DNA of 64,000 nucleotides, taken from Candidatus Methanimicrococcus labiotermitis (GTDB lineage: Archaea; Halobacteriota; Methanosarcinia; Methanosarcinales; Methanosarcinaceae). How positions within the stretch are numbered: the stretch's first letter is position 1; each line of letters begins with the position of its first letter. Below are positions 930 to 58,622 of this stretch, piece after piece. Location of the stretch: positions 10,519-74,518 of the forward strand of contig WRCE01000003.1 in assembly GCA_009784005.1 (NCBI GenBank), in the 5' to 3' direction. The position numbers were made by a program, and so were the translations under genes. A model generated the notes under the pieces. That model made no database searches and was not told the DNA's origin. It saw only the letters and a program-made list of their open reading frames with translations.

Positions 930-2234
930 TTAAGGCATCGGAGCAATGCCTTTTCCGTATCCGTCAGCCAATTTGCGGCGCTCGCGGCTGCCGCAGTTGC
1001 CGCAAACCAAAACATCGCCGTCTCTTGTCAGTGATGTTTTGCATTTGGAACAATAAGCTTTTAAAACGCCGAGGCTGCTGTCAACAGTGGACAAGCCGAT
1101 TTTGCTGCTGTCAATCACTTTGGCGCGGACAATGTCACCGACGGAGAACTCATCGGCAACGGACTTGGCAAAACCGTCTTTGATGTTGGAAACATAAATT
1201 TCGGCATTGCCCTTGTTAACGATTTCTTCGTCCAAACTTTTTTCCGCCGCGACCAAGTCGACGCGGGCGTTGGATTCGCGAACGTCGGTAATCGAGACAA
1301 TGACAACATCGCCTTCAGTGATGGTGTTTAATGTCTTAGTCTTTGGAATAATTGCAATCATGCGGTGTTCGCTGTTGATGCCGACAACGCCCATAACGGT
1401 TGAGCGGATTGTGCCGTCATCGTTAACGGTCCCAAAACCGGGTTTGTATTCTTCGATTGTGCCGACGGCTTCGCCCGGAAAAACGAAGCGTTTCGTTTTC
1501 TCAAAAACAATTTTTTCGGGGCGCTTCTTCTTCTCGCCGGGTTTGCGGCCGCCTCTGCGGTCTCCGCCGCGGTCTCCGCGGTCGCCTCTGCCGCCGTTTC
1601 TGTCACGGTCGCCTCTGCCGCCGCGGTCGTCTCTGCCGCCGCGGTCGCCTCGGCCGCCGAATTCGCCTCTTCCGCCGCGTTCGCCACGGCCGCCGAATTC
1701 GCTTCTGCCGCTGCGTTCGCCGCCGCGTTCGCCGCTTCGTTCGCCTCTGCTGACGAATTCGCCTCTGCCGCTTTGTTCGTCTCTGACGGGGCGTTCACTT
1801 CTGACGACTTGTTCATCTCTGGCGGGGCGCTCGCTTCTGACAGGGCGTTCATCTCTGACGACTTGTTCGTCTCTGACGGGGCGCTCACTTCTGACGGGAC
1901 GTTCGCCTCTGCCGCTGTCGCCGTTTTGGCTTTCGGCCGGGCGGGCGTTTCCGGCAGGGGGCCTTCTTTCGCCGCGGGGTTCACCGCGGGGTTCGTCGCC
2001 GGCATCCTCTTCCTTATTTTCACTCACGCGGTTGACTCGCTTAACCGGTTTTTTCGCTGCCTCTTCTTTGGGAGCGATTTCGGGTTTGGGACGGCGCGGA
2101 ATTCTTGATTTTTGAGGAGCTTCGGGTACGGTTTCAACCGTTTCGGGCATTTCCTTAATTTCCTTAGGTTCGTCGGTTTTAGATGACACTTCTTTCAGTC
2201 TTCTTCGGATCGGTTTCTTTTGAACTCTGCTCAT
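930..2234 (-). CDS. csl4: Exosome RNA-binding subunit Csl4 with a ~245-aa arginine/glycine/glutamate-rich repetitive N-terminal extension
   Basis: The C-terminal ~185 aa (FVFPGEAVGTIEEYKPGFGT...IVRAKVID...CSKCKTSL...LVCGNCGSRERRKL) correspond to the Csl4 N-domain, S1 domain and zinc ribbon. The N-terminus holds RGG/RGD and RSERPVRDEQVV repeats. There is no internal Met upstream of the Csl4 core. Confidence 0.8.
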   Translation of the reverse strand: MSRVQKKPIRRRLKEVSSKTDEPKEIKEMPETVETVPEAPQKSRIPRRPKPEIAPKEEAAKKPVKRVNRVSENKEEDAGDEPRGEPRGERRPPAGNARPAESQNGDSGRGERPVRSERPVRDEQVVRDERPVRSERPARDEQVVRSERPVRDEQSGRGEFVSRGERSGERGGERSGRSEFGGRGERGGRGEFGGRGDRGGRDDRGGRGDRDRNGGRGDRGDRGGDRRGGRKPGEKKKRPEKIVFEKTKRFVFPGEAVGTIEEYKPGFGTVNDDGTIRSTVMGVVGINSEHRMIAIIPKTKTLNTITEGDVVIVSITDVRESNARVDLVAAEKSLDEEIVNKGNAEIYVSNIKDGFAKSVADEFSVGDIVRAKVIDSSKIGLSTVDSSLGVLKAYCSKCKTSLTRDGDVLVCGNCGSRERRKLADGYGKGIAPMP

Positions 2235-2535: not shown

Positions 2536-3192
2536 TCAAATATTGTCTTGACCGGAATCGATTCTGTATATCTCGACATCAAACGTTTGAATGTCTTTCT
2601 TATGAAAGTCAAACGTTCTTCGGATTGGAAAGTCTGTTATAAAGCAGTTTGTTATAACAGCGGGTTTAATAAATTTTTCTATAAAAGCGCGGCTCCCTTT
2701 GTTATGAATGGAATAAACCGTGCCGCCCGCTTTGAGCGCCGCGGTTAAAAACGGCCTGTCTTGCCCCTTCTTCTGCGCCCCAAACGGCGGATTCATGAGA
2801 ACAGTATCCGCCCGCTTCAGCTTTTTGGATTCGATGCATTCCGGAATTTCCGTGACATTCTAAACGAGAAAATCGAGCGCTTCGTTCGCGCCCGTTTCAT
2901 CAATTTCCGCTTTCATCCCGGCCGCGTTTTTAACGGCGTTAGAGACGGCGCCGTCATCAATATCAAATCCGATCACTTCTTTTGCGCCGAGAAGCGCGGC
3001 GCCGATTGAAAGGATACCTGTGCCGCAGCCCAAATCGTAAACCGTTTTGCCTTCAATGTCACCGCTCATGAAAGCCAAATGGAGAAAAGGCGCCGCCACC
3101 GTTGCCGGCGTTTTATATTGTTCATAATTGACATTCGGCGTTTCAAACCCCTCCACCTTTTCAAGCGCGATTTCCAGCTTTCTGAGTTTCAT
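2536..3192 (-). CDS. METTL5-like SAM-dependent RNA (N6-adenine) methyltransferase (COG2263 type), interrupted by one in-frame TAG at complement(2860..2862)
   Basis: The two track ORFs (2860..3210 and 2536..2796) are in the same frame. The junction reads ...[43 protein letters not shown]... The SAM motif [10 protein letters not shown] lies upstream and the NPPFG, YSIH and FIEKF motifs lie downstream. Total length (~218 codons) is normal for the family. Confidence 0.65.
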
Positions 3193-9962: not shown

Positions 9963-10649
9963 ACTTTCACCTTAATATTGGTTCACTGGAAGACAAACGC
10001 AAGCGACTGTCCGATATAAAGAATAATAAACAATATAACCCGCGCTTTTATCCGGTTTTCAAAAAGGCAGAAAGCCTTTCACAGGATTAAATGAAACGTT
10101 TTTAACACCACATAATTAACATCACAATTAACACCATTTAAATTGCAATCCGGCGGTTTCGCGACCGAAAAGTTGGTGAAAATTAAATAACAGTCTCGTT
10201 GTTTAATAAGCTTTTTACTATCGGTTTTGTATTCAAAGTCCTGAAACGATATCGGAGCAACCAAAGACTTGTATTCGGAACAATTGAAGAAAATATATGA
10301 AAATCGTGTGCCGCCGATTGATAACTAAGTTGATAATAAACATGATAACAATTCTGCTGATGCTGATTTTAAATAGTAATCATTTCTATTAAGAGGAACC
10401 GTTCGGCTGATTATGTTTTCTAATCAGAAGAGTTACTAATTTGAAAACGACCATTAATCTGACAATTGACAAAAATTTTTCGATGCCTTAGTAAAACTCG
10501 GCACCTTGGTAAAATCAGGCTTGTGAGTGCCGCGCCCGCGCCCCGAATAAAACGTGATGAGTAGCCGACGGGAACAAAATAGTGCGTCGACAAAAAACGA
10601 CGAATGCGGCAACTGAAAAACAGAAACAAAGGGAAAAAACAAACTGAGG

Positions 10650-11585
10650 AAAATGAAACACCCCTTTCTTCGACAAAATAAGAAATGGGAACGCCCCTTT
10701 TCCCGAAACTCATCTTTCAGGTTTTAAAAAGAGGCGTTCAGGTTTTGAATAAAACGAACAAATCGGTGTTTCATTTTTTTAATTCTCTTTTAGCCCCTAA
10801 AACCGACCGTTCATTACGAATTCCGGTCTGAGCGCAGCGAAGAACGGAATCGGAATGAACGGCTATTATCATTATTTGCTGATGCTGATACTGATATTTA
10901 TGTTGATGTTGATGCTGTTGCCGGTTTATTGTCAATCTGTACTAATGAGAAAAATGTACTGATAATAGTGATGAGAATAAGTTGTGCGCCGCATTTTCGT
11001 CTTTCGTCCGCTTCGCTCCCGAAATCCGAAATTGCGGTCGTACTTGAACTTTTCAAAGAATAACAAAAATGAAACATCCTTTCTTCAACAAAATAACAAA
11101 AATGAAACACCCCTTTCTTCAACAAAATACGAAAAGGGAACGCCCCTTTTCCCGAAACTCATCTTTCAGGTTTTAAAAAGAGGCGTTCAGGTTTTGAATA
11201 AAACGAACAAATCGGTGTTTCATTTTTTCTTCTCTTTTAACCCCTAAAACCGACCGTTCATTACGAATTCCGGTCTGAGCGCAGCGAAGAACGGAATCGG
11301 AATGAACGGCTATTATCATTATTTGCTGATGTTGATGCTGATGTTGATGCTGATGTTGATGCAGATGTTGATGCTGATGCTGTTGCCGGTTTATTGTTAA
11401 TCTGTACCGATGAGAAGAATGTGCAGATAAATATTGATGAGAAAAATGTACTGACAATATTGATGAGAATAAGTTGTGCGCCGCATTTTCGTCTTTCGTC
11501 CGCTTCGCTCCCGAAATCCGAAATTGCGGTCGTACTTGAACTTTTCAAAGAACAACAAAAAAGAAACACCCTTTTATTCATCAAA
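10650..11585 (+). repeat. Family-1 composite structured repeat, two tandem units of about 440 bp (modules M3-M2-microsatellite-M1)
   Basis: Module M3 is a nested inverted repeat (TGAAACACC...GAACGCC...GGCGTTC...GGTGTTTCA). Module M2 is the hairpin CCGTTCATTACGAATTCCG...CGGAATCGGAATGAACGG. Then comes a variable (GCTGAT/GTTGAT)n core. Module M1 is GCCGCATTTTCG...CGAAATTGCGGT. The units are near-identical to the copies at 14.6-15.2 kb and 38.3-39.0 kb. Confidence 0.85.
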
Positions 11586-11624
11586 AAGGAAAAAACAACG
11601 GCAAAAACAGCAAACTTGAAAGAT

Positions 11625-12896
11625 TTATCTGACGTTTGTCAGCTTCCCGTCCTTGGATAAAACAACAACGCGGCTCGGCTCGGATTCGCCGGCGTATTGA
11701 TATCCGGCAAAGGACGCGATGTCATTCGCAAACGCCCGAATCTCTTCTTGTTCCGCCATGTTGGCGCGCGCCAGGCGCAGTCTTGAAAAGCCCACGTGCA
11801 TGTAGGATTTGACTTCAACGAAATCGGGCGCCGCGATTTTTATCAGTTCGGCAAGTCCGGGCGCGTCTGCCATGTTTAAGCCTTTGACAGCGGTCACCCG
11901 AATGACTGTCCTGACGCCTTCTGATTTCTTTTCTTTGAGAACCGCCAGGGACTCATTCACTTTTTCCCAAAGGTTTTTGCTTTTCGGGCGGCAAACGTTA
12001 TCATACATTTCAGGCGTGGACGCGTCTAAACTCATGTAAAGCTGAGTCGGTTTGATTTGACGAAGCATGTCGGGATTCGTTCCGTTGGTGACAAGAAAAA
12101 CCGTCATGCCGGCTTTTTCAAATTCCGTGACCAACTCAGGCAGCCGCGGATAAAAAGTCGGCTCGCCGGAAAGAGATATGGCGACGTTGGACGGGTTGAC
12201 GGCTTCTTCGTAGTGGCCGGGAACCGCGTTTTTTGACCCGCCGAAGCCGGTAATCAATTTTCGCTGGGCTTTGACACTCTCCCTCACAATCGTTTCCGGG
12301 TCGTCCCACGAATCGGGAATACCCGCTTCGACTTCCGTCGGGCGCCAGCAAAAAACGCATGCCTGATTACACATCAGGGTCGGCGTCATCTGAAGGCAGC
12401 GATGGGACGTCACGCCGTAAAAAGAAGATTTGTAACAAACGCCCGTGCCGTTCATTGAATTTTTCAGCCACGAGCATGTTTTAACGGCGGAATGGGCGCC
12501 GGCTTTCGCGTAACCCTGACGGCGCATCAGCTCGTCAATCGAAATGTCTTCGGGAGAATAATGAAAACGGCTTCTTTCTTCGGAAGGGGTGGGAGGAGAG
12601 GAGCCTTTAATCAGGCCCTCGGCTGAATCCCGAGTGGAATCGCAAGAGGAATCGCAAGGGGAATCGCGGGTGGAATCACAGGCGGAATCGCAGGCGGAAT
12701 CACAGGCGGAATCACAGGCGGAATCGCGGGTGGAATCGCAGGTGGAATCGCGAGCGGAATCACGGGTGGAATCACGAGTGGAATCACGGGCGGAATCACG
12801 AGTGGAATCTCGGATTGAACCTTCTCTTTTTTCACAATCAGTGACCGGTTTTTTTTCATTCATTTTTGTGACCCGAAATAAAAATACGATTCGCAA
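11625..12896 (-). CDS. taw1: tRNA 4-demethylwyosine synthase (TYW1/Taw1, radical SAM) with a repeat-encoded N-terminal extension
   Basis: Radical-SAM CX3CX2C (MCNQACVFCWR), an upstream Cys cluster (KTCSWLK...GVCYK), SLSGEPT, and FLVTNGT. The N-terminus carries (DSTRDSA)n repeats. Confidence 0.85.
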   Translation of the reverse strand: MRIVFLFRVTKMNEKKPVTDCEKREGSIRDSTRDSARDSTRDSTRDSARDSTCDSTRDSACDSACDSACDSACDSTRDSPCDSSCDSTRDSAEGLIKGSSPPTPSEERSRFHYSPEDISIDELMRRQGYAKAGAHSAVKTCSWLKNSMNGTGVCYKSSFYGVTSHRCLQMTPTLMCNQACVFCWRPTEVEAGIPDSWDDPETIVRESVKAQRKLITGFGGSKNAVPGHYEEAVNPSNVAISLSGEPTFYPRLPELVTEFEKAGMTVFLVTNGTNPDMLRQIKPTQLYMSLDASTPEMYDNVCRPKSKNLWEKVNESLAVLKEKKSEGVRTVIRVTAVKGLNMADAPGLAELIKIAAPDFVEVKSYMHVGFSRLRLARANMAEQEEIRAFANDIASFAGYQYAGESEPSRVVVLSKDGKLTNVR

Positions 12897-12920
12897 TGTA
12901 ACTTAAACAATTTGATTAAC

Positions 12921-13072
12921 AATGCCTTAAACGATACCTTAAACGATGCCTTAAACAATGCCTTAAACAATGCCTTAACGATGCCTTAAACGATGCCTAA
13001 ACAATGCTTTAAACAATACTTTAAACGATGTCTTAAACGATGCAGCTTAAACGATGCAGCTTAAACGATGTA
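12921..13072. repeat. Intergenic minisatellite, ~12-bp unit (GCCTTAAACGAT)
   Basis: About 12 copies upstream of taw1, reaching the 3' end of the 390-aa ORF. Confidence 0.85.
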
Positions 13073-14355: not shown

Positions 14356-14589
14356 AACTTAATTATGTTATTTTCTTTTTAAGAGTTTCGTAACTTATAT
14401 AAACGTGACAAATACCCGAAATTGTCACAAATTTTTGTGACGTTAATTCGCACTACCCTGTTTTTAAGTTCAATGTGTGAAAAAAACAAACCGATTTTGA
14501 AAAAACAAATGACGAAATGAAAAACGACAAAAACGAAACATCATTTTGAAAAAAATTGTAATCAAGAAACAAAATGAGAAAATTGTAAG

Positions 14590-15205
14590 AGAGAATGTAC
14601 TGATAATATTGATGAGAATAAGTTGTGAGCCGCATTTTCGTCTTTCGTCCGCTTCGCTCCCGAAATCCGAAATTGCGGTCGTACTTGAACTTTTCGAAGA
14701 ATAACAAAAAATGAAACACCCCTTTCTTCTGAAAATAAGAAAAATGAACGCCCCTTTTCCCGAAACTTATCTTTCAGGTTTTTAAAAAACGGCGTTCGGG
14801 TTTGAATAAAATCAACGAAAATCGGTGTTTCATTTTTTATTCTCTTTTAACCCCTAAAACCGACCGTTCATTACGAATTCCGGTCTGAGCGCAGCGAAGA
14901 ACGGAATCGGAATGAACGGCTATTATCATTATTTGCTGATGCTGATGTTGATACTGATGCAGGTTTGTTATCTGTCTATTTTCAGCCTATTGTCTGTCTA
15001 TTTTCAGTTAATATTGATGATGATATTGATGATGATATTGATGATGATATTGATGATGATATTGATGATGATATTGATGATGATATTGATGATATTATTG
15101 ATGATAATATTGATGAAAATAAGTTGTGCGCCGCATTTTCGTCTTTCGTCCGCTTCGCTACCGAAATCCGAAATTGCGGTCGTACTTGAACTTTTCAATG
15201 AATAA
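14590..15205 (+). repeat. Family-1 composite structured repeat (M1-M3-M2-microsatellite-M1)
   Basis: Same modules as locus 1. Here the variable core is (TGATGATATTGA)n at about 15005-15110. Confidence 0.85.
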
Positions 15206-15312
15206 TAAAAATGAAACTAATCGAAAAAACAGTAAACAAAAATGAAACTAATCAAAAAAACAGTGAGCAAAAGGAAAAAAGAAAAAAGGACAAGAACTTG
15301 CCCTTTCGAATT

Positions 15313-23567: not shown

Positions 23568-24797
23568 TTAAAGAATCCGAACATCCAAGCAAATATTAGA
23601 TTGATGCGGCGCATAAGAACGAACCACTCTTTTTTCGACAACCTCAATCGAGCGCCCTTTCTTTTCAGCCGCTGCGCGAATCAGTTCAACCGACCCGTCA
23701 AACAAATCGTCATCCGAAGTCATGGCATAACAATGAATCACGCCGCCCGGTTTACAGATGGCAACAGCCGTATCCAAGAAATCAAACGCGTTGTGAGGCA
23801 GATTCATTATGACATGGTCGGCGGCGTTTGGATATTTTTCAGACAGGAAGAGAGCGTCTTCGTTCAGCGCCGTGACGTTGGATACTTTATTCAAAGCGAT
23901 ATTTTCACGTAGCATTGCGACCGCGTCTTCGTTTTTATCGTTCGCGATAACGCAAGACGGCGATGCAAATTTAGCAAACAGGATACTGTAGGGGCCAACG
24001 CCCGCAAACATGTCAATAACGACATCGCCGTCCCGAATCTGCCCCAATATGCGGTGACGCTCGGTGGAAAGGCGGGGCGTGAAATAAGCGCGCGCCAAAT
24101 CAACATGATACCGACAGCCGTACTCCTTGTGGATGGTGGCCGTTTTGTCTTCGCCCTTCACAAAAACAAGCGGCCGTGTTCTGAATTCGCCGGAAATGCT
24201 GCCGGCGGAAAGCAAAACGGTTTTGATGGCGGAATGCGCTGTTAAAATCGCGTCGGCGACATCGGAAACATTAAAAGAGGGAACAGAGGGAACGGAAGGG
24301 ACAGAGGGAACGGAAGGGACAGAGGGAACGGAAGGGACAGAGGGAACGGAAGGAACAGAGGGAACAGGTACTTTCAGGTTTTCGTCGCCGGAAATTTTTT
24401 CGTCAATAACGGCAATGTCGCCGATGATTTCGTAAGCGACCGAATAGCCCAGAATTTCACTGACCGTCGGCACTTTCTTTTGGACTTGAAACGAAACGCA
24501 TTGCAAGTACCAGCTGTGAAATTCCACTTTCTTTTTCGGGTGCGGCAAAAGTGAAATAAGCGGCATGAGACTGTCCCTGAGGACAAGGCGCTCTTCTTTT
24601 TCCGGATACCGAACCAAAGGTAAATAGAGGTAAATGTCGTCGGCAAATGGTTTGCAAGAGTGATCGATCAGATCATACTCATCCAGCAAACGGCGAACGG
24701 GTTCTCCGTTTCCCTTGTGGGTGCGAAAGGACGTGCGTAAAACACAATCGGGATTGCCTGTGTGTTCGTTTTCTGTTGAATCAGACTTTTGTATCAT
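23568..24797 (-). CDS. trm5: tRNA (guanine37-N1)-methyltransferase Trm5 family, with an internal (PSV)n repeat insertion
   Basis: SAM-binding motif VIDMFAGVGPYS plus NDKN....L..N and VIMNLPH. Ten PSV repeats are encoded at about 24275-24365. Confidence 0.8.
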   Translation of the reverse strand: MIQKSDSTENEHTGNPDCVLRTSFRTHKGNGEPVRRLLDEYDLIDHSCKPFADDIYLYLPLVRYPEKEERLVLRDSLMPLISLLPHPKKKVEFHSWYLQCVSFQVQKKVPTVSEILGYSVAYEIIGDIAVIDEKISGDENLKVPVPSVPSVPSVPSVPSVPSVPSVPSVPSVPSFNVSDVADAILTAHSAIKTVLLSAGSISGEFRTRPLVFVKGEDKTATIHKEYGCRYHVDLARAYFTPRLSTERHRILGQIRDGDVVIDMFAGVGPYSILFAKFASPSCVIANDKNEDAVAMLRENIALNKVSNVTALNEDALFLSEKYPNAADHVIMNLPHNAFDFLDTAVAICKPGGVIHCYAMTSDDDLFDGSVELIRAAAEKKGRSIEVVEKRVVRSYAPHQSNICLDVRIL

Positions 24798-25575: not shown

Positions 25576-26061
25576 TCAGCTTCTTTCCAGCAGATAGGCC
25601 TTAACCGCCTGCCAGTCGGGAAACTTTTCCGACCCGAAATGTATCCATTCCCCTTCAAAAAGGCAGGCGCCGTTTTTGTCGCGGTCATCCACCAAAAAGT
25701 CACCTTTGTTTAAGTTTTTGTGATGCGTCAGGATAAGCCGCTTGTGCGCAGGCTCGCCTAAATTTTCTTTGACCCATATCAGTTTATCCGACCACGCGCT
25801 GTTGTTTTCCCAGGGGGCGGTGGAAAGGATATAGACATCGAATCGGCAGCACAACTCATGAAAACTCTCAATCGCGCCGTTAATTGGTTTCATTAATCTG
25901 AAAATATCCGGGATTTCATCAAAGGAAGACGGTTTGTTTCTTTCGGGGCAAGCGGCATATTTCTACTTGGTCTCCTCGTCCATTTCATCAATGACGGACT
26001 GGAAATCAACGAGAACGCCGTCCATGTCAATATAAAGAATTTTCTTATCGCCTTTAACCAT
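25576..26061 (-). CDS. 5'(3')-deoxyribonucleotidase (NT5C/HAD family), interrupted by one in-frame TAG at complement(25963..25965)
   Basis: My own translation from the ATG at complement(26059..26061) gives MVKGDKKILYIDMDGVLVDFQSVIDEMDEETK-TAG-KYAACPERNKPSSFDEIPDIFRLMKPINGAIESFHEL..., which continues into track ORF 25576..25893 in the same frame. HAD motif I (DMDGV) lies upstream of the TAG and the rest of the fold lies downstream. Confidence 0.65.
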
Positions 26062-30143: not shown

Positions 30144-30527
30144 TTGAATTAAAGCTGTAAATGCCTATGACATGTATTGCTGATTTAAAAAGATGATGAA
30201 ACGGCGCGTCAAAAATGAGCCCGCGCTTTTCATCGCCGGTGCCGGTTTCTCTGAAATGGCACGCGCCGCGATTGAATGCGTGAACCTTGAATTTTTAAGA
30301 ATCTTGATTTTTAAGAATCCTGAATATTTAAGAATCCTTAACTTTTGAAAAAAACATCGGCTCCCTCTTTCACCTCTGAAATTAAACCGGTTTTTTGTGA
30401 GAATCCCGAAAAGTCATTAAATTTATATTTGTTTTTGACCTTTCACTACTTTCTTTAAAGAACAAATAACAAGAACAATATTACATAATTGAAACACGAT
30501 TGTTGAATTATTTACCGGAGTTAAAAA

Positions 30528-33439: not shown

Positions 33440-34660
33440 GTAAAATTGCCGGCTTTTCCTTTTTCCGATTTGATTGTGAAAATAGAAGAGCCCTATTTTA
33501 TTTCACCCGAATGGCTGACGGGCGTAGCCTTTTTCGGTTCATCACACCTCAGATTTATGCACTGTATGAATGCTTTGGCATTCAGTGCATAATTTATCCC
33601 ACCACAAAACAAAAACACACACAACCACAAATCCGTATCAGAAAAAATGACACGGTAAAAGCCGGCAATTTTTGCCGGCAATCCCTATTTTGAATCAGAA
33701 CATGAAAAAACGAATCATTTTTTGATTTAACAAAAAATACACAAGCGGAGCCGTTTTTGGCCCATCGCGTTTATGCGCCGCATGATTGCTTTGTCATCCG
33801 GTGCATAGATTACTCCAACATCCATACACACAAAAACACACACAAAACACAAACAAAACACAAACCGTGTCAAGAAAAATGACACGGAAAAAGCCGGCAA
33901 TTTTTGTCGGCTTATCTCCATTTTGAATCAAATCATGAAAAAACGAATCATTTTTTGATTTAACCAAAAATACACAATCGGAACCATTTTTGGTCTATCA
34001 CGATTATGCACTGAATGAATTCTTTGTCATCCGGTGCATAATAACCCCACCACAAAAACGAAACACACACAAAAACACACACAAAACGTAAATCCGTGTC
34101 AGAAAAAAATGACACGGTAAAAGCCGGCAATTTTTGCCGGCAATCCCTATTTTGAATCAAATCATGACATAAACGAATCATTTTTTGATTTAACCAAAAT
34201 GACGAACGGAACCGTTTTTGGTCCATCACGTTTATGCACCGTGCGAATGCTTTGGCATTCGGTGCATAATTTATCCACCACACACAAAACACACACAAAA
34301 ACACACGCATGAAAAAAATCCGTGTCAGTAAAATGGCACGGAAAAAGCCGGCAATTTTTGCCGGCTAATCCCTATTTTGAATCAAATCATGACAAAACGA
34401 ATCATTTTTTGATTTAACCAAGAATGACGGACTGAACCGTTTTTTGATTTAACCGAAAATGACGGACGGAGTCGTTTTTTGATTTAACCAAGAATGACGG
34501 ACGGAGTCGTTTTTTGGCCCATCACGTTTATGCACCGCATGAATGCTGTCATCCGGCGCATAATTTTCTCCACCATACACACAAAACACACACATGAAAA
34601 AATCCGTTTCAGAAAAATGACGCGGTAATAGCCGGCAATTTTTGCCGGCTAATCTCTTTT
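33440..34660. repeat. Family-2 tandem array: five units of about 216-284 bp, each with the same set of hairpins and a CA-rich tract
   Basis: The anchor AGCCGGCAATTTTTGCCGGC recurs near 33660, 33892, 34131, 34347 and 34631. Each unit also has CCGTGTCA-N7-TGACACGG and TATGCACCG(TGC)GAATGC-TTTG-GCATTCGGTGCATA hairpins and a (CACACAAAA)n tract. Confidence 0.85.
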
Positions 34661-49790: not shown

Positions 49791-50080
49791 GTTACTAAAC
49801 CTCTTATTTTATAGGAATTTATAAGATGTAATTGAATACCGAGTTATATATTTACTCTTATGTAACCTGAATTAGATTAATACTTTCGCCATGCAAGATC
49901 TAGAATTAAATTCAAAGACATTATTAAAATACGATAGAAGTTGTTCCATTACCTGATTTTTTTACCTCGACAAGAATTTATATTTAATAATTCTTCTATT
50001 CTTGTATTGTGCGTTCAAACGTGCTAAGCGATTGAGGTGCGGGAATTAGAAAGGAATACGAGAAACGGATTTCGATTCAA

Positions 50081-51334
50081 ATGGATTCAGAATGGTTGAC
50101 TCCCAAAGAAGCCGGAGTTAAATGGGGAATAAAAACGAGGCGCGTACAAGCACTTTGCTTAAAGGGGCAAATAAACGGTGCGGTTCGCATAGATCGATTT
50201 TGGTTAATTCCTAAAAACACTCCAAAACCCATTGATAGTCGAACGAAAATCAAAAAGCAATTACATAGTCAAGTGAATGAAATTGATACAGTCAAAGATA
50301 ATAATAAACCACGATTAATTTCATTATTCTCTGGTTGCGGTGGTCTTGACCTTGGTTTTGAAAAGGCGGGATTTGAGAGAGTGTGGGCTAATGACTTTGA
50401 TTCAGATGCACAAGCTGTTTATACCCGTAATCTTGGTAAAATAGATGGGCGGGATATATTAAGCGTAGATGAAGACGATATTCCTGAAGGGGATATATTA
50501 ACAGCTGGATTTCCCTGTCAACCATTTTCTAATGCTGGGAACCGTAAAGGTGTTCATGATTCTAGGGGTATGCTATACAAGGAATGCCTTCGAATTATTG
50601 AAAGTAAAATGCCAAAGGTTATTGTATTTGAAAATGTAAAAGGATTATTGTCAACAAAATATATTGATGGGCGCAACTTGGTTGACGTCATTAATGAAGA
50701 TTTGTCAACAATTGGAGGCGTGGGTTACAATGTTGTTCATAAACTTCTAAACGCTGCTGACTACGGCGTTCCACAAAACAGGCAAAGAGTTTTTTTTGTT
50801 GGGATAAAAAAAGATTTAAAAATTAATTTTGTTTTTCCCGAAAAGCAAATAAAAAATAATTTGACAATTCGGAATGTTCTGGAAATGCCCAAAGATTTAC
50901 CCAATCAAATTGATTGGGGGTTGTCACCCCAAGCACTTGAAATGATTGAATACATACCAGAGGGTGGTTCTTGGAAAGATATTCCTTATGAGCAATTAGC
51001 GCCTCGTTTTCAACGAATAAGAGATGATATGAAGAAATATCGCTCGCCTAATTTTTATAGACGTTTTTCGCGTGATGAAATTAACGGAACAATTACAGCA
51101 TCGGCTCAACCCGAAAACTGTGGTATTATCCACCCGACCGAAAATCGCCGTTATACGATTCGTGAAATTGCTCGAATACAAACTTTTCCAGATGATTTCC
51201 TATTTATTGATGACACACCAAAAAACATTACAGCAATGTATAAAGTCATTGGAAATGCCGTGCCCGTAATCCTAGCTCAGAATATAGCCTCTTCGATTAT
51301 GGAACAAGTTTTCAAAGGAGAACAGGCATGTTAA
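50081..51334 (+). CDS. DNA (cytosine-5)-methyltransferase with an N-terminal helix-turn-helix (excisionase/MerR-like) domain
   Basis: C5-MTase motifs I LFSGCGGLDLGF, IV GFPCQPFS, VI FENVKGL, VIII QNRQRVFFVG and X IGNAVP. The N-terminal ~50 aa (WLTPKEAGVKWGIKTRRVQALCLKGQI) look like an HTH. Confidence 0.9.
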   Translation: MDSEWLTPKEAGVKWGIKTRRVQALCLKGQINGAVRIDRFWLIPKNTPKPIDSRTKIKKQLHSQVNEIDTVKDNNKPRLISLFSGCGGLDLGFEKAGFERVWANDFDSDAQAVYTRNLGKIDGRDILSVDEDDIPEGDILTAGFPCQPFSNAGNRKGVHDSRGMLYKECLRIIESKMPKVIVFENVKGLLSTKYIDGRNLVDVINEDLSTIGGVGYNVVHKLLNAADYGVPQNRQRVFFVGIKKDLKINFVFPEKQIKNNLTIRNVLEMPKDLPNQIDWGLSPQALEMIEYIPEGGSWKDIPYEQLAPRFQRIRDDMKKYRSPNFYRRFSRDEINGTITASAQPENCGIIHPTENRRYTIREIARIQTFPDDFLFIDDTPKNITAMYKVIGNAVPVILAQNIASSIMEQVFKGEQAC

Positions 51335-52896
51335 TGAATACCGATAAAGCATATCTTTTTGGTTTGATAATCGGTGGTGGGATTTGGCGAAACAACGAAG
51401 ACGGATTCATAATCCACCTCCCGTATAGGAAATGGGGTTCATATGACCAGAATCCCAGACGTGCCTCTCAAATATCAGGAGACATTGTACAATTTTTAAA
51501 CCCATTGTTTAGAAACATTTACGGCCTCAATATTTCTTTTGATGGAACTGCTCGCGGTGATTGGAATATTTTGTTTGAGGGAGATTTGACAGAGTTGAAA
51601 TCCGATTTGCAGTCATACGGTATTGAATGCGAAGGCGAATTGCGTAGTACTGCAAGTATTGGTGGGATAATTGCTGATTTATTTGATGAAAATATGAAAC
51701 GGAGATTTATTGCAGGACTTGCCGATACCATAGGTAGCACAAATAAAAACCACCGGCGATTTTCAGCTGAAATCCAAACTTTATCGTTTGAGTTAAAAGG
51801 CTTTAATTTCTCATTCGTTTGTGAGTTGTGCCGCCTTTTGTATAGTGTAAACTGTTTACCCGATCAAATTCTGTGGAACCATCCCAACTTCCAATCAGCA
51901 AGTGACTCTTACTATACGAAATGGAATAAAGGTACCAAACTCCGCATCCAACTTGATCAATATGCTAAATTCGGAGCGTTTGCTTTCAAAACAAAGGCGG
52001 AATCATCTATCGAAAATCGTAGCTTGCAGCAACAAACGCATAGTGCAGTTTCGTGCCCCGAACGCGAAATTCGAGCGAAAACTTCCTGCTTTCATCCCGG
52101 AGAGAATGATAAAAGGTTGCCTGATTGCATCCGTGGAGGACATTATCTCCATAATCGCCATGTCTGTGCTGTTATGGGATGTGAAAATGCACCATATGAT
52201 ACTATTAGAGGCTTATTTTCAAATGTTGGAGATTTAATTATTCCTTTCCCAATATTGTGTAAAAATACAATACAGAAAATAGAAGAAATAATTAAAGAAG
52301 AGCCGTTGCTTGCTAATCGAGAGTATTCTATTGCAAACGTTAGTGTAAAATCATTATACGAACTTTATAAAGCAGACCATAACGCATTATTATTTGGAAA
52401 CAATGCTAATAATGGGTACCCTATTGCCAAAATAATCCAAGGCATATCTTATGTGATTGCTGATGAAAATGAATTAAATGGCGCACGCCCCAAAGGCAAC
52501 TTTGAAAAGATTGTAGAACATCGCATACATCATGAAATGAATAATAAATACCCAAATATTCTTTCTAGGTTTGAAGTTCAAGAGTCAAATTTTATTATTG
52601 CTGAAAATACTGAAGGAGTTTCCTATACAGTAAATGCTGATGAGCTAAATAAACACCCTAAAAATAAATCACTGATAGACTTAGGGCGTGATTTGTCTAC
52701 CGCCACTGGCCTTATGGTCGAATTCCGTAAACCTGATTTGTTAACACCTTTAGTAATCACTGGAAATGGTCGAGGTGTATTGATTGGTGCGCATAACCCG
52801 AGTGTTTATGAAAAACTTGTTACGATTGCCCCGGATAATGAATATAAATTGTGTGTCCGCCCAATAACTGAAGGAGATTTGCGTAATGCGAAATGA
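51328..52896 (+). CDS. Hypothetical 522-aa protein with two degenerate LAGLIDADG-like motifs; candidate nuclease or specificity partner of the upstream methyltransferase
   Basis: KAYLFGLIIGGG (aa ~7-18) and RRFIAGLADTIGS (aa ~124-136) resemble LAGLIDADG motifs at roughly the spacing expected of a double-motif LAGLIDADG enzyme. The gene overlaps both neighbours (7 nt and 11 nt). The functional assignment is tentative. Confidence 0.45.
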   Translation: MLMNTDKAYLFGLIIGGGIWRNNEDGFIIHLPYRKWGSYDQNPRRASQISGDIVQFLNPLFRNIYGLNISFDGTARGDWNILFEGDLTELKSDLQSYGIECEGELRSTASIGGIIADLFDENMKRRFIAGLADTIGSTNKNHRRFSAEIQTLSFELKGFNFSFVCELCRLLYSVNCLPDQILWNHPNFQSASDSYYTKWNKGTKLRIQLDQYAKFGAFAFKTKAESSIENRSLQQQTHSAVSCPEREIRAKTSCFHPGENDKRLPDCIRGGHYLHNRHVCAVMGCENAPYDTIRGLFSNVGDLIIPFPILCKNTIQKIEEIIKEEPLLANREYSIANVSVKSLYELYKADHNALLFGNNANNGYPIAKIIQGISYVIADENELNGARPKGNFEKIVEHRIHHEMNNKYPNILSRFEVQESNFIIAENTEGVSYTVNADELNKHPKNKSLIDLGRDLSTATGLMVEFRKPDLLTPLVITGNGRGVLIGAHNPSVYEKLVTIAPDNEYKLCVRPITEGDLRNAK

Positions 52897-53458
52897 AGTA
52901 TCCTATTACCCAGAGATACAGACTTTTATCGAAGCGCAATTAAGAAGCAATTTTTTGGCGAGTAACCGCCGCGAATTGTATGTATATTGGGGAATCGGCG
53001 AATTGAAAAACAATCTCCAACGTATCATTATCGAGCACCCCGACAAATGTGCTTGCGTTTCAAAATTCGCAGAGCGTGTTCCACCGTTAAGTCTTGATAT
53101 ATTTGCTCTGATTACAGATGGGATAAAATTCGAACTTTTGATTTTAGAGATCAAACTTTTGAATGCCGTAGGGTTGAAAGAATGGTCACAACTTGTGGGA
53201 TATTGTTTTGTATCAGGTTCAAAATATGGGTTGCTTGTCAATATCAACAACGGGGCCAGTCCACGCTTAACTCAATTATTGCATACTGAACATCATATAT
53301 CTCACATACAGACAATAGTTAATAGTGAGCCTTGTGAACATATGCTTGGATTCATGCAATGGAATGACCTTACCCAAAATTTTGAATATAGCAATTTCGG
53401 TTTTATTAAATCGTTATCGGAATTAAGTGATAGACTCGCAGCCGAATTTTCAAAATAA
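52886..53458 (+). CDS. PD-(D/E)XK-like nuclease-fold protein (candidate restriction endonuclease subunit)
   Basis: PPLSLDIFALITDG...FELLILEIKLL gives a D...ExK arrangement followed by ...SQLVGY. It is the last gene of the operon. Confidence 0.5.
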   Translation: MRNEVSYYPEIQTFIEAQLRSNFLASNRRELYVYWGIGELKNNLQRIIIEHPDKCACVSKFAERVPPLSLDIFALITDGIKFELLILEIKLLNAVGLKEWSQLVGYCFVSGSKYGLLVNINNGASPRLTQLLHTEHHISHIQTIVNSEPCEHMLGFMQWNDLTQNFEYSNFGFIKSLSELSDRLAAEFSK

Positions 53459-53749
53459 ATTCAGCAAATAAAAACATTTATTAAACGTGACAAACGAACC
53501 TAATACCACATAAAAAAAGAAAACGTAATGGAAAATCCCTCTTATCTTCAATCAAGAAGTGCATAATTTCATGACTCCATTTGCATTTGGAATTATGGTG
53601 ACAATGAGTTTTGTTTACTAAACGAGAATATAAAAAGATCATTGAAAGTGGCACCCAATTCTCATTATTAATGAAAAAATATTTCTAATATTATAAGAAA
53701 AATGGATACAATTCAATGAATATATTATATCGGTTGGATTCATTATAAT

Positions 53750-54670
53750 TTAACTGATTTTTTTAACTTCTGATTCGAGTTTCTCAAGATTCTTCTTATG
53801 TTTCCGAATATTTTCTCTTATTTCTTTGCATTTCTCAGAATTAAAACTAACATTCTTTTTTTTATTTTTGAAGTATTCAATGCCATTTTCATTGCATAAA
53901 ACAGAATGAGCGAAAATATTTCGAGGTATTATAATTTCATTATGATATTCCCTTGAAAAATCATCCAGATCTAACTGATTTAATATTTCACCAATTGCTA
54001 AAGATTGTTGATATGACGAAAAGAGAAGAGGATCGGCCATCAAATCATCAATCGAACATTCGAGTTTGCACTTTTCAAAATATTTGGACTTGGACCTGAG
54101 ATGAGTGGCAATTTCATCAAATATTTTTTTTGATAATTGTTCTGTATCTAACTCAGCGCATTTTGTACATGAATTGATGATTTCAAAAGCCGCAGCGTCT
54201 AATGAGCTGGTTTCATGCATAATCATACCGCGCATGGCAATTATATGCTGAAATTTTTGAATTGTCAAATCAATAAGTTTAATAATTTCATTATAAACTG
54301 ACTTATGATGAGTTTCAGAAGAGAATTTGGAAGTTTCTAAAAATGTGCTACGATTAATTTGACCAATATCCCTTAATTTTTTTGCAGTATAGAATAAAAT
54401 TTCTGTGGAAATGTTTGATTGGCGAATAAGTTGAATTATTTGATCACCGTTTTTTCCTGTGGATTCATCCTCCACTAGATTATAGTCTATAAGCATGAGA
54501 TCAAAATCCTCATTTAGGGATCGCTCAAAATCGTCAGAATTTGAAATTGAGATAATGGATGGTTCAAATCCATGATTAGATAAATGCACTTTTACTTTTT
54601 CAAGCCAGTCATCATCAATAAAATCATTAATACGATCATCTAACCATAGAATGTTATACCTTAGTTTCAT
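53750..54670 (-). CDS. Receiver (CheY-like REC) domain protein with a C-terminal HEPN-like domain (RNIFAH motif)
   Basis: REC features: acidic pocket ILWLDD, phospho-acceptor candidate D62 in DLMLIDYNL, and T95 in LFYTAKK. The C-terminal half is all-alpha and carries Rx4H as R250-N-I-F-A-H255 (complement 53906..53923). It overlaps the kinase gene by 4 nt. Confidence 0.6.
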   Translation of the reverse strand: MKLRYNILWLDDRINDFIDDDWLEKVKVHLSNHGFEPSIISISNSDDFERSLNEDFDLMLIDYNLVEDESTGKNGDQIIQLIRQSNISTEILFYTAKKLRDIGQINRSTFLETSKFSSETHHKSVYNEIIKLIDLTIQKFQHIIAMRGMIMHETSSLDAAAFEIINSCTKCAELDTEQLSKKIFDEIATHLRSKSKYFEKCKLECSIDDLMADPLLFSSYQQSLAIGEILNQLDLDDFSREYHNEIIIPRNIFAHSVLCNENGIEYFKNKKKNVSFNSEKCKEIRENIRKHKKNLEKLESEVKKIS

Positions 54671-57324
54671 AGTCCCAACTCTATAATAAAAACAGTTTTT
54701 ACATTTTCTTCAGAAGAAACCGTTATTTTTCCTTTCATATCTTTTTGAATCGTTGATTTTATTATATACAATCCAATACCGGATCCGTCTGTCGTTGTAA
54801 AACCTAAATCAAAAATTTGATCTAGATGCTCCGCGGCAATTCCTTTGCCGTTATCTTCAACGGCTATCCTCAATCCTAAATCTGTAACATTAAAATCAAA
54901 ATAAATGTCACTAGCGCCTGCTTTTTCTGCGTTATTAATGAAATTATCAATAAGAATTGTAACCTCAAGAGGGCTAAATTCTTTTACGAACTCCTTATTG
55001 TTATCTGTTAAATGGATCTTTAATTTTGTATTTAGAAGCGGTTCAGAAGATAGGTAAATTTCTTCAACATATTCCTTTATGAATTGAACAAGATCTCTAG
55101 TTATTGAATTGGAGTTTACGCCGAAATTTGCTCGTGTAATGAAATTCGATACGGATTTAATTTTGGAGGATTCTTTCATGATTGTATAAATTTTAGCTAA
55201 ATCTTTTTCTGAAACATTTTTACTCCTCAATAAAGAATTAGCATTCTCAATAATCCGGCTAGAAGAATGACCAATGTTGTGTTGAAGTCCCATTATGTGT
55301 TCTTTGTCCATCCCAATTAGAGAACTTTGAAACAATCTTCTCTTTTTCTCTTCATTGAATTTCACAACGGCTTCTTCTCTTTCTTTCTCTGCATTTGCCC
55401 TTTTTTCTGATTCGTCCTTAGCTTTTTGTTCTGCCTCTTTTCGAGCAAACTCTTCTTCACGCTTTTTAAGCTCTGCTTCTCTTTGAGCAAGTTCCGCTTT
55501 TTCTCGTGCTTCTTCTTCTTTTTGTCGTTCTGTTTCAGCTTTCTTCCTAGCTTCTTCCGCTTCTTTTCTCTTTTGTTCTGCTTCACGCTTTTTAAGCTCT
55601 GCTTCTCTTTGAGCGAGCTCTGCTTTTTTTCGTGCTTCTTCTTCTTTTTGTCGTTCTGTTTCGGCTTTCTTCCTAGCTTCTTCTTCCGCTTTCTTTTGTT
55701 CTTCTGCTTCTATTCTCTTTTTTTCTTCCTCAATGAATTTGCGTTCAGTTTCCATTTTTTGATTTAATAATACCACATACTTTTTTTCAGCATCCTCAAC
55801 GCTTTTAAACAATTCTGAATTATTTGTTTTCGTAGCAATTTTTGAAATGTCTTTAAATATAGATGGATTTACTTTTTCAAGATTATCCTTAATTATTGAA
55901 AACAAATCTTTATCATACTCTAAAATTTCAATATCTTTATTGTCAGATAGTTTTTTTATGATTTTTACAAGATGAAACCGACTTCCCAGATTCTTTTGAA
56001 TTATAGACGTGTCTTCTCGATTCTTGTCACCATCAAGAAGTTCTTTCTCCGTGAAAAACCCCTTGGACTCCCATCCAAGACCCCATTGAACAAACCCAAT
56101 ATACCTTTCCAACGGTTTAAGGGATTTTTCAAAAAATAATTCTTTAAGAATGAGGTATTCGGGTGTTTCTACAAGACCCCCGTCACGACTCGATGCTTCA
56201 CGGAAATAAGATGAATCGGTTATTAATTCGATTCGACCAAAAAGATCCCTTGTACCCAAAAAACGCCGATTTCCTTGTTGATGCCTAAAATCAATGCCTA
56301 AGCTATCGTCTCCAAGAGCTCCGTATGGAGAAACTCTAAATCCATTTTTAAAAAGGAATATGGAGCCAAACCTAACCGGCTCAATACCCATTGTTCTCGT
56401 AAAATTTGTTTTTGCAATAGTATTTAAATAATAGATATGAAACGAAGCGTCATTTAAAAAAGAACTATGAATATTTTTTTCACGAACTTTATAGATTAAT
56501 GTTCCACGGTCAACCAATTCGGTTGTAATCCACTCATCGGACATTGACGTTTTTATTTGAGTTGTTTTTAAGTTCAATTTTTCAAAAATAAAATTATTTA
56601 CCGGACCATTGACCTGAGTTAAGTATCGACCAGTTCCTTGGCGATGAATTCTCTTACGGCTAGACTTACCTTTATCATCTTCTGAAAGGTCAGATGTACT
56701 AGTAAGCCAAATTTCAAAATCAAGAGAATCAAAGGGATTAATAAGCTTTTCCAACGATTGTTTTAATTCAATTTTTCTCTCATAATCCCACTTGGAACGT
56801 AAAGATGAGATTTCAAGAACAACTCCGCTATCGAAATAATTAGAGACTGTCTCATGATTAACTTTTATTTGATAAAATTCTTTTTTCGGGTCTTTTTCGA
56901 ATGAATCCCAATCAACATAAACTCTTTCGGTAAAATCAGTACCTTTTTTGCGTGATGTTAGCACTAATTTTTGACCTACTCGATCACAAGAAAAACGTCC
57001 GATACCTTTGGAACCAGCATAATATTTGCGCTTAATATTATCACGATAACTGGTATTTTTTTCAGAGGGCAAATCTTCAGTTCCATCTATTTTTGCAGAA
57101 TATGCAACAAATAACCATTTATTAATAATATCCTCTAAGGACATGCCCTTTCCATCATCCTTGATAATAATTTTATCAGGTTCAAAAATGATTTCAACTT
57201 TTTTTGAAAAAGCATCATATGAATTTTTTACAAGTTCAAAGATTGCAATGAAATCATCAGTAATTAAATCTTTACCGATGATACTTTTTAATGCAGAACT
57301 AACTTTAAAAGACAATTCATCCAT
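54667..57324 (-). CDS. Dual-GHKL protein: N-terminal MORC/Hsp90-type ATPase module, charged coiled coil, C-terminal histidine-kinase module
   Basis: N-terminal module: ELVKNSYDA (N box), IKDDGKGMS (G1), GSKGIGRFS (G2). Residues ~520-650 are a K/E/A/R-rich coiled coil with an internal ~41-aa duplication. C-terminal module: H-box-like LQHNIGHSSS, N box IDNFINNAEKAG, G1 VEDNGKGI, G2 GSGIGLYIIK. Confidence 0.72.
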   Translation of the reverse strand: MDELSFKVSSALKSIIGKDLITDDFIAIFELVKNSYDAFSKKVEIIFEPDKIIIKDDGKGMSLEDIINKWLFVAYSAKIDGTEDLPSEKNTSYRDNIKRKYYAGSKGIGRFSCDRVGQKLVLTSRKKGTDFTERVYVDWDSFEKDPKKEFYQIKVNHETVSNYFDSGVVLEISSLRSKWDYERKIELKQSLEKLINPFDSLDFEIWLTSTSDLSEDDKGKSSRKRIHRQGTGRYLTQVNGPVNNFIFEKLNLKTTQIKTSMSDEWITTELVDRGTLIYKVREKNIHSSFLNDASFHIYYLNTIAKTNFTRTMGIEPVRFGSIFLFKNGFRVSPYGALGDDSLGIDFRHQQGNRRFLGTRDLFGRIELITDSSYFREASSRDGGLVETPEYLILKELFFEKSLKPLERYIGFVQWGLGWESKGFFTEKELLDGDKNREDTSIIQKNLGSRFHLVKIIKKLSDNKDIEILEYDKDLFSIIKDNLEKVNPSIFKDISKIATKTNNSELFKSVEDAEKKYVVLLNQKMETERKFIEEEKKRIEAEEQKKAEEEARKKAETERQKEEEARKKAELAQREAELKKREAEQKRKEAEEARKKAETERQKEEEAREKAELAQREAELKKREEEFARKEAEQKAKDESEKRANAEKEREEAVVKFNEEKKRRLFQSSLIGMDKEHIMGLQHNIGHSSSRIIENANSLLRSKNVSEKDLAKIYTIMKESSKIKSVSNFITRANFGVNSNSITRDLVQFIKEYVEEIYLSSEPLLNTKLKIHLTDNNKEFVKEFSPLEVTILIDNFINNAEKAGASDIYFDFNVTDLGLRIAVEDNGKGIAAEHLDQIFDLGFTTTDGSGIGLYIIKSTIQKDMKGKITVSSEENVKTVFIIELGL

Positions 57325-58531
57325 TCAATTCACCCATTTCTTTTAACGCTAATCCTGCAAGCTCACCGAACAGGGGTGGAATTGCATTTCCAATTTGTGT
57401 GTATCGAGGAACTTCTACTTTCCTCAAAAGCCCCCCTGTCGTATATTTTGCTTTTATTTTATAAGAATCTGGAAATGATTGAATCCGAGCGTATTCTCTT
57501 ACAGTTAAAATACGTGGTTCCGAGTAATGGATATAGTCATCGGGATGTGTTGTCAGTGTAGGACATTTGGAAGTACCGTCCAAGATTGAAATTCCTCTCT
57601 TTTTTACCCCCCACTCATCTCTTTCTTTACTAGTCAATCTTTTATTCCGAGTAGGATATTTCTCCAAAAGATTAGAAAATAACAATTTAGTTTCAGGGTT
57701 ATGTTTTGCAAAACTGTGACTATCTGCCACATCCCCCTTTTGTACGGTATTCGATCTCATTAATTTTTGATATGAACTTTCAGCGCTATTGTACCTACCT
57801 GCACGGAAATTCTTACGATCAGGGCAAGGTGTTGTACCATTTCTCTCAAACAAATCCGATATTGCTTCCGCTACTGTGACAGTTTCAGAGATGCCTTTCA
57901 TTGAAAGAAAATCACTTTTCATGTCATTAATTAACATAAAAAAATCCTTAGCTTTTTTGGATGAAGATTTTTTTAGTACGCCTACTAAAATAAAACGCTT
58001 GCGTCTTTGAGGAATGCCATAGCTTGAAAAATCCACTACATCTGATTCGACATCGTACCCCATATCTTTTAAAGTCTCCACAACAATTTTAGAATAAGGA
58101 ATACCTCGTTTGTCCTCTTTGACAAAAGAATAAGTAAAACCCATAACATTTTCAAAGAAAATAAGTTTGGGGCGAACTAAATCAATAAATTCAATATATG
58201 AATAAACGAGTTGATTTCTTTCATCTTCTTCAATGCGTTTGCCAGCCATTGAAAACCCTTGACATGGCGGGCCACCAGCAACAAGATCGACCTTCCCTCT
58301 TAATGCCATCAAATCATTTCTGTTTTTTTTCAATAATTCGTTGATGTCATGATTAGATTCTTCAAGCCAATCTGGAAAATTGAAATGCTTCCGCTCATCA
58401 ATTAAGTTTGCTTTAAGAGTGGAGAAAGCAAAGGGACTTTTTTCAACTGCAAACAGACCAGACCATCCGGCGTTGTGCAAACCTAGAGAAAGACCCCCAC
58501 ATCCCGCAAATATATCAATATAATTGGGCAT
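57317..58531 (-). CDS. DNA (cytosine-5)-methyltransferase
   Basis: Motifs I IFAGCGGLSLGL, IV GGPPCQGFS, VI FENVMGF, VIII QRRKRFILVG and X IGNAIPP. Overlaps the downstream dual-GHKL gene by 8 nt. Confidence 0.9.
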   Translation of the reverse strand: MPNYIDIFAGCGGLSLGLHNAGWSGLFAVEKSPFAFSTLKANLIDERKHFNFPDWLEESNHDINELLKKNRNDLMALRGKVDLVAGGPPCQGFSMAGKRIEEDERNQLVYSYIEFIDLVRPKLIFFENVMGFTYSFVKEDKRGIPYSKIVVETLKDMGYDVESDVVDFSSYGIPQRRKRFILVGVLKKSSSKKAKDFFMLINDMKSDFLSMKGISETVTVAEAISDLFERNGTTPCPDRKNFRAGRYNSAESSYQKLMRSNTVQKGDVADSHSFAKHNPETKLLFSNLLEKYPTRNKRLTSKERDEWGVKKRGISILDGTSKCPTLTTHPDDYIHYSEPRILTVREYARIQSFPDSYKIKAKYTTGGLLRKVEVPRYTQIGNAIPPLFGELAGLALKEMGELNG

Positions 58532-58622
58532 ATGACTATAATAAGTATGGGAAGAATAAAAAGATACCGGTAAGGACTATTTCTGAAAAATATAAAAAAG
58601 AAAAAGTAACGGGAAATCCCCA

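Follow-up and report, generated by a model that had tools for sequence, protein, structure and literature searches.

The window analysed here, a stretch of 64,000 nucleotides, carries on its minus strand a gene for an NT5C-type 5'(3')-deoxyribonucleotidase, referred to below as nt5c, whose reading frame is interrupted by a single TAG. The window is archaeal and methanogen-typical and comes from a metagenome-assembled genome (MAG) of Methanimicrococcus sp. (Methanosarcinaceae). Its genes include those for O-phosphoseryl-tRNA synthetase (SepRS), RadB, an aIF-2B-family isomerase, Trm5/Taw2 and Taw1, together with a presenilin-type SPP, GAN/RecJ, PurP and an MtaA/MtbA-like URO-D methyltransferase; the four proteins at the window ends had no exact match on record. 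The features of the nt5c locus are as follows.

25576..26061, minus strand: the whole gene for an NT5C-type 5'(3')-deoxyribonucleotidase, with 161 codons, one of them an in-frame TAG, and TGA as its stop
26014-26028, minus strand: HAD motif I, DMDGV, inside the 32 codons before the TAG
25966..26061, minus strand: N-terminal 32 codons, read by translation and absent from the public annotation
25963..25965, minus strand: in-frame TAG, codon 33, the proposed pyrrolysine codon (from translation, alignment, the TAG in relatives and the model)
25894..25962, minus strand: 23 codons from the TAG to the annotated internal ATG, non-coding if the 105-aa ORF alone is translated
25576..25893, minus strand: annotated 105-aa ORF (P0010, "hypothetical protein FWE54_00845"), a truncated mis-call

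The nt5c reading frame and its product

Translation of the minus strand from the ATG at 26059-26061 gives MVKGDKKILYIDMDGVLVDFQSVIDEMDEETK-TAG-KYAACPERNKPSSFDEIPDIFRLMKPING... and continues to a TGA stop at 25576-25578; the TAG at 25963-25965 is the sole interruption of this frame. A first-pass annotation, made from the letters of the DNA, had described a seamless in-frame TAG at this place, and the frame is indeed open on both sides of it; the frame arithmetic given there was also right. The listed ORF 25576..25893 starts internally, at Met57 of nt5c, and its 105-aa product is 100% identical to FWE54_00845 from a Methanimicrococcus sp. MAG.

The read-through product matched the Pfam NT5C family (PF06941) over residues 7-143 with an E value of 1.4e-13 and 51.5 bits, against a cut-off of 24.8 bits; the match covers profile positions 2-151 of 180, the TAG included. 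An AlphaFold model of the same product consists of a single NT5C/HAD fold (mean pLDDT 90.2, pTM 0.84), and a Foldseek search with this model returned 3bwv (TM 0.74), 2i7d (TM 0.70) and 1mh9 (TM 0.71), with probability 1.00. The assignment to the HAD/NT5C 5'(3')-deoxyribonucleotidases, first made without database searches, is therefore borne out by a family match that spans the TAG and by the fold. The HAD motifs D12-M-D14-G-V, S80/T81, K115 and D125/D126 show little or no variation in an alignment of 22 sequences. As had been proposed, the catalytic motif precedes the TAG and the remaining fold follows it: D12 and D14 lie upstream, and S80/T81, K115 and D125/D126 lie downstream, so that neither half of nt5c would be a working enzyme alone. 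Residue 33 itself falls in a coil (model residues 26-37) of the variable cap insert, which separates motif I from the core; the sequences of the solved cdN and mdN structures do not align to this segment. Across the NT5C family, the column of residue 33 holds Q, R, K, E, N, A, I or T.

The closest full-length homologues belong to Methanimicrococcus and Methanolapillus, and the full-length homologues P0001-P0008 share 72-80% identity with the NT5C query over 96-99% of its length. The protein resembles human cdN and mdN and a bacterial NT5C-like protein (2i7d, 1mh9 and 3bwv) in its Pfam NT5C match, in its DxDxV, S/T, K and DD motifs, and in fold, with TM scores of 0.70-0.74. It differs from them in being short (161 aa), with a reduced cap, in having a UAG codon, and in an 8-residue insert specific to intestinal Methanosarcinaceae; this insert of the archaeal clade sits just after the TAG position. 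An intact, functional gene for an NT5C/HAD 5'(3')-deoxyribonucleotidase, with predicted dNMP phosphatase activity, is the best explanation of the locus.

Beyond Methanimicrococcus and Methanolapillus, the nearest NT5C homologues are bacterial, at 55-66% identity (Bacteroidales, Ignavibacteria, Spirochaetes and Mycobacteria), and other Methanosarcinales do not appear among the top matches. Since the nearest homologues outside the clade are bacterial, the distribution suggests that the gut-associated archaeal clade took up nt5c from bacteria.

Stop codons and further TAG-bearing genes

The first-pass annotation had counted nt5c as the second gene of the window with an in-frame TAG, after a methylase. 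That methylase is a METTL5-family gene on the same strand, and a third TAG-split gene was found in an 11-kb locus of a relative, L002.

2536..3192, minus strand: METTL5-family class I methyltransferase with an in-frame TAG at 2860-2862 (from translation, Pfam and relatives)
10040-10918 of the L002 locus, minus strand: hisG (ATP phosphoribosyltransferase) with an in-frame TAG at 10229-10231

In the METTL5-family gene, complement(2536..3192), the TAG follows a GCGTG SAM-binding motif and precedes an NPPF motif, and the column that holds it is variable in relatives (L, S, C, K or Q). Its closest relatives, at 83-85% identity, are unsplit, so this TAG is lineage-specific and younger than that of NT5C. 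The hisG TAG of L002 lies inside the HisG_C domain, and Pfam HisG and HisG_C matches span it. In the published metabolic table of Lab288P3_bin190, hisG, mtmB, mtbB and mttB are all marked "ND", a pattern that fits the loss of TAG-split genes by standard annotation; for hisG, the entry is probably an artefact of code-11 annotation and not a real loss.

The terminal stops of the 35 Pfam-supported genes in the window (13,460 codons) are TAA in 20 and TGA in 15, with no TAG, and the in-frame stops in the same genes are two TAG, no TAA and no TGA. No Pfam match in the window was cut in a manner suggesting a TAA or TGA split. An equal frequency of genes split by TAA or TGA, which the first-pass annotation had named as the sign of general pseudogenization, was thus not observed. 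The count by itself is weak evidence, because a random nonsense spectrum would give TAG in 31-35% of hits and hence two of two with P about 0.10 (three of three, P about 0.03-0.04); the argument for read-through rests on evolutionary conservation and not on stop counts. Moreover, with TAG-stop usage at 4-5%, about 1.5 TAG stops are expected in 35 genes, so a sample of this size cannot separate full reassignment from ambiguous decoding. Same-frame ORF pairs in all six frames of the window (129 joined by TGA, 101 by TAA and 22 by TAG) lie mostly in non-coding frames and are uninformative.

Several other TAG-containing candidates were rejected as genes. The only TAG-ended ORFs of the window, 10420..10713 and 14453..14719, are low-complexity repeat translations with no Pfam match. 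The TAG-joined pair at 30165-30167 lies upstream of GAN/RecJ, whose L002 orthologue has an equal length of 481 aa, and the pairs at 23910 and 37073 are antisense to real genes. The pair at 34365-34367 lies in a repeat-like stretch with no Pfam match; in the minus frame of 33960-34448, which likewise has no Pfam match, the motif …CHDLIQNRD… is duplicated around a TAG, and this stretch, too, is likely to be a repeated non-coding element rather than a gene.

The window also holds repeats and an island of unusual composition. An intergenic repeat of about 450 nt occurs three or four times, its copies 75-96% identical, at about 10638-11594 and 14581-15244; microsatellite-like 12-nt and 9-nt tracts lie within it, and it yields spurious low-complexity ORFs, among them the two TAG-"terminated" ones. 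Two tandem arrays with 12-nt units occupy 12597-12845 and 12904-13043. One of them, with a consensus of approximately GGAATCRCRGGY, falls within the 5' portion of a Taw1-like radical-SAM ORF, 11625..12896, implying that this ORF has a repetitive N-terminal extension or is an over-long call; the other is just upstream of the ORF. From about 50000 to 58600, GC content is 0.33-0.38, compared with about 0.45 elsewhere. This island encodes two C5 cytosine DNA methyltransferases (50081-51334, plus strand; 57317-58531, minus strand), an 885-aa protein with HATPase_c_3 and HATPase_c domains (54667-57324, minus strand) and several ORFs without a Pfam match; horizontal acquisition of a restriction-modification or defence island is the probable explanation. 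Finally, the only Pfam match of the 434-aa ORF at 930-2234 (minus strand) is to the exosome Csl4/Rrp4-type ECR1_N domain, at residues 250-284; either its start was called too far upstream or a Csl4-like protein carries a fused N-terminal region of 250 residues.

Conservation of the TAG and selection on both sides

Related nt5c loci were collected as DNA from GTDB genomes and JGI metagenomes, and the homologous codon was compared. Four further diverged sequences carry TAG at this codon (L001, L002, L066 and L067), all four from termite-gut metagenomes; L002, which is the same as L068, is Methanimicrococcus sp. Lab288P3bin190 from the termite Labiotermes. The flanking codons vary among the five TAG-bearing sequences (AAG-TAG-AAA, AGA-TAG-CGA, AGA-TAG-GAA, AGG-TAG-AAA and AGA-TAG-AAA), and none of the five has any other stop or a frameshift. 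At this position, CAA (Gln) or CGG (Arg) stands in the sister sequences. With the TAG codon left out of the distances, the five TAG-bearers were monophyletic in 498 of 500 bootstrap trees, which indicates a single origin of the nt5c TAG followed by its retention.

Pairwise Nei-Gojobori estimates among the five gave dS values of 0.34-1.2; dN/dS was 0.02-0.15 upstream of the TAG, where 26 codons could be aligned, and 0.07-0.19 in the 126 codons downstream. For the 23 codons between the TAG and Met57, pN/pS was 0.11-0.40, and for all 49 codons outside the annotated ORF (26 + 23) it was 0.06-0.21; the synonymous excess in these 49 codons was significant in every pair (binomial P 0.0065 to 2.8e-7). 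Judged by these rates, the sequence on both sides of the nt5c TAG is under strong purifying selection. Along the dS tree of the TAG clade, 1.79 in length, a neutral triplet would remain unchanged with P about 0.005, while retention of the TAG at the average non-synonymous rate of NT5C has P = 0.61. The TAG therefore evolves as a sense codon under ordinary constraint would and is not a lesion, but these values do not show it to be conserved beyond its neighbours; because its retention does not rise above the expectation for an average residue, nothing shows selection for pyrrolysine (Pyl) itself. The proposal that UAG is systematically read through, and that the gene is not undergoing random decay, had been made from the window alone; it is supported by the TAG conserved in orthologues and by the constraint on both halves, and the orthologues are not decaying.

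Decoding of the UAG

Methanimicrococcus and Methanolapillus are H2-dependent, methanol- and methylamine-reducing methanogens of arthropod guts, within the Methanosarcinaceae, and nearly every genome of this intestinal clade is reported to have the Pyl pathway (PMC11362671). Recoding of UAG as Pyl is already known for the genus: Methanimicrococcus is among eight genera with numerous internal-TAG "Category 1" genes (Kivenson et al. 2024, bioRxiv 10.1101/2024.09.30.615893). Within the 64-kb window, ARAGORN predicted no tRNA genes, tRNA-Pyl included, and no pyl or methylamine methyltransferase genes were found. A search with an approximate M. mazei PylRS query returned no Methanimicrococcus PylRS among the best 120 matches, all of which were Methanosarcina or unnamed. 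For Lab288P3_bin190, a MAG that is 84.5% complete, the published table lists pylD, mtmC, mtbC, mttC and mtbA as present and pylB, pylC and pylS as "ND".

We also looked for a cis-acting signal after the nt5c TAG. The 120 nt that follow it have an MFE of -20.8, compared with a shuffle mean of -20.4 (z = -0.13), and in an alifold analysis of five homologues the covariation term was +1.76, with compensatory pairs at 1 of 30. At gathering thresholds, no Rfam family, the PYLIS families included, matched the window. A cis recoding element was therefore rejected, as the sequence folds no better than shuffles and shows no covariation; a PYLIS-like structure is absent after the nt5c TAG. Such an element is not needed for Pyl insertion (bioRxiv 10.1101/2024.09.30.615893; PMC12626013).

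Given this Pyl-encoding lineage, read-through of the codon is almost certainly Pyl insertion, and we consider it very probable that the UAG in nt5c is decoded as Pyl, giving an intact enzyme in Methanimicrococcus. Pyl-tRNA(Pyl), with its CUA anticodon, would read the UAG at codon 33 and insert Pyl, and translation would continue to the full 161-residue enzyme; ribosomes that stop at the UAG would release a useless 32-residue peptide. Decoding would need no dedicated recoding signal and would rely only on the pyrrolysine machinery of the cell, which methylamine-reducing methanogens would keep for their methylamine methyltransferases. The codon may have passed from CAA for Gln through CAG or TAA to TAG, in a loop of the cap insert that tolerates change; the TAG would have arisen in the common ancestor of the termite-gut Methanimicrococcus clade and been retained since, most likely as a near-neutral substitution. 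As the column is variable and the position lies in a coil, near-neutral replacement of Gln by Pyl at a tolerant surface position would be the simplest history. We infer the identity of the inserted residue, the presence of pylTSBCD in the source MAG and the neutrality of the substitution.

Each of the other explanations that we weighed is improbable. A nonsense mutation that turned a Gln codon into TAG, leaving a pseudogene that is decaying or was recently broken, would agree with the 105-aa fragment in the public annotation and with the Gln of sister lineages, which makes the TAG derived; the enzyme is also probably dispensable and may be horizontally acquired. This account is highly improbable, however, for a TAG that five lineages have held over 1.79 of dS tree length, an outcome with P = 0.005 under neutrality, with dN/dS of 0.02-0.19 on its two sides, no frameshift or second stop in any lineage and all catalytic motifs intact. 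The same recurrence bears on the quality of the sequence: the TAG is present at the same codon in four diverged sequences from other samples, and the 564-nt stretch that holds it was found identical in an ENA megahit contig and in a Logan contig, two copies that may share source reads. Although the source is a MAG, the chance that a sequencing or assembly error, or a chimeric contig, produced a spurious TAG is negligible.

The remaining two accounts accept the TAG as genuine and differ over what the ribosome does with it. If translation ended at the UAG and began again at the internal ATG (25893), the 105-aa protein would be real, possibly as a non-catalytic product. Gene callers do choose this ORF, and ATG57 is kept in four of the five TAG-bearing sequences, the fifth, L002, having TTG, another possible start. 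We regard this as very unlikely, since the 26 codons upstream and the 23 codons from the TAG to ATG57 evolve as coding sequence (pN/pS 0.06-0.21), the 105-aa piece has neither the nucleophile Asp12 nor the Asp14 of HAD motif I, and position 57 is not Met in several full-length NT5C homologues, such as L003. Alternatively, a standard residue could be inserted, either by a suppressor tRNA (for example, a Gln- or Trp-accepting tRNA with a CUA anticodon) or by near-cognate decoding. The ancestral residue is Gln, and reassignment of TAG to Gln occurs in other organisms; in addition, the window has no pyl gene or tRNA, and pylB, pylC and pylS are "ND" in the related MAG. Insertion of a standard residue is nonetheless quite unlikely, because in the Methanosarcinaceae tRNA(Pyl) is the known decoder of UAG, members of the genus use methylamines and have genes for Pyl biosynthesis, and proteomics of Pyl archaea showed TAG positions without any other amino acid (Kivenson et al.).

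Decoding of the nt5c UAG as Pyl would be in keeping with several known systems. The methylamine methyltransferases MtmB, MtbB and MttB have a catalytic Pyl that is conserved throughout, and a PYLIS stem-loop is present in mtmB. Their UAG codons are read as Pyl by the same machinery that is proposed for nt5c; in contrast to them, the nt5c site lies in a variable cap loop, was ancestrally Gln and has no structure after the UAG. There is also a likeness to the Category 1 genes of Pyl-encoding archaea and the proposed Genetic Code 34: nt5c, too, encodes an ordinary enzyme whose parts before and after the TAG both have homologues, it has no PYLIS, TAG is rare or absent as a terminator, and the public annotation gives fragments. 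Identity on both sides of the nt5c TAG is 72-80%, where the Category 1 threshold is >30%, and the extension is 128 aa, where it is >15 aa. Mass spectrometry has confirmed Pyl at such codons of Methanococcoides burtonii and Methanomethylophilus alvi, and of the Pyl sites outside methyltransferases, most are reported to occur just once within a genome or genus (bioRxiv 10.1101/2024.09.30.615893), whereas the nt5c site is common to at least five diverged lineages of one genus.

In the account of it cited in bioRxiv 10.1101/2024.09.30.615893 and PMC12626013, the tRNA-His guanylyltransferase Thg1 of Methanosarcina acetivorans acquired Pyl by neutral evolution. As cited there, Thg1 is, like nt5c, a housekeeping-type enzyme outside methylamine metabolism with a non-catalytic, tolerant Pyl site and no PYLIS; it belongs to another enzyme family, and for nt5c neutrality is suggested by the variable column and by retention at the average dN. 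The UAG of rdmS in M. acetivorans gives a long Pyl form and a short terminated form (Shalvarjian et al. 2025, PMC12626013). As in nt5c, this is a UAG in a non-methyltransferase gene of the Methanosarcinaceae, and two products would likewise be expected wherever the release factor competes with Pyl-tRNA; the short form of nt5c would differ in having only 32 residues and in being non-functional.

It is conceivable, but unlikely, that the conserved UAG of nt5c (with those of METTL5 and of hisG in the relative) acts as a translational gate, or that Pyl has a function in substrate binding by the cap loop. With such a gate, the nucleotidase would be made only if Pyl-tRNA(Pyl) beats the release factor, and the output of a housekeeping enzyme would be tied to the supply of pyrrolysine and hence to methylamine availability. 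Returning to decoding of the UAG as an ordinary Pyl codon, we put at about even the chances that reassignment of TAG to Pyl (Code 34) is complete in the clade and that nt5c is an older, fixed non-methyltransferase Pyl site.

The nt5c case reveals no new mechanism. What it offers is a correction of annotation, by which a public 105-aa hypothetical protein becomes a complete 161-residue deoxyribonucleotidase, and an indication that genes of gut methanogens are under-reported by standard code-11 calling, which plausibly explains why hisG, mtmB, mtbB and mttB are "not detected" in the related MAG. As a non-methyltransferase Pyl site that appears to have been kept across several species-level lineages, nt5c would be useful for dating the drift of UAG from stop to sense.
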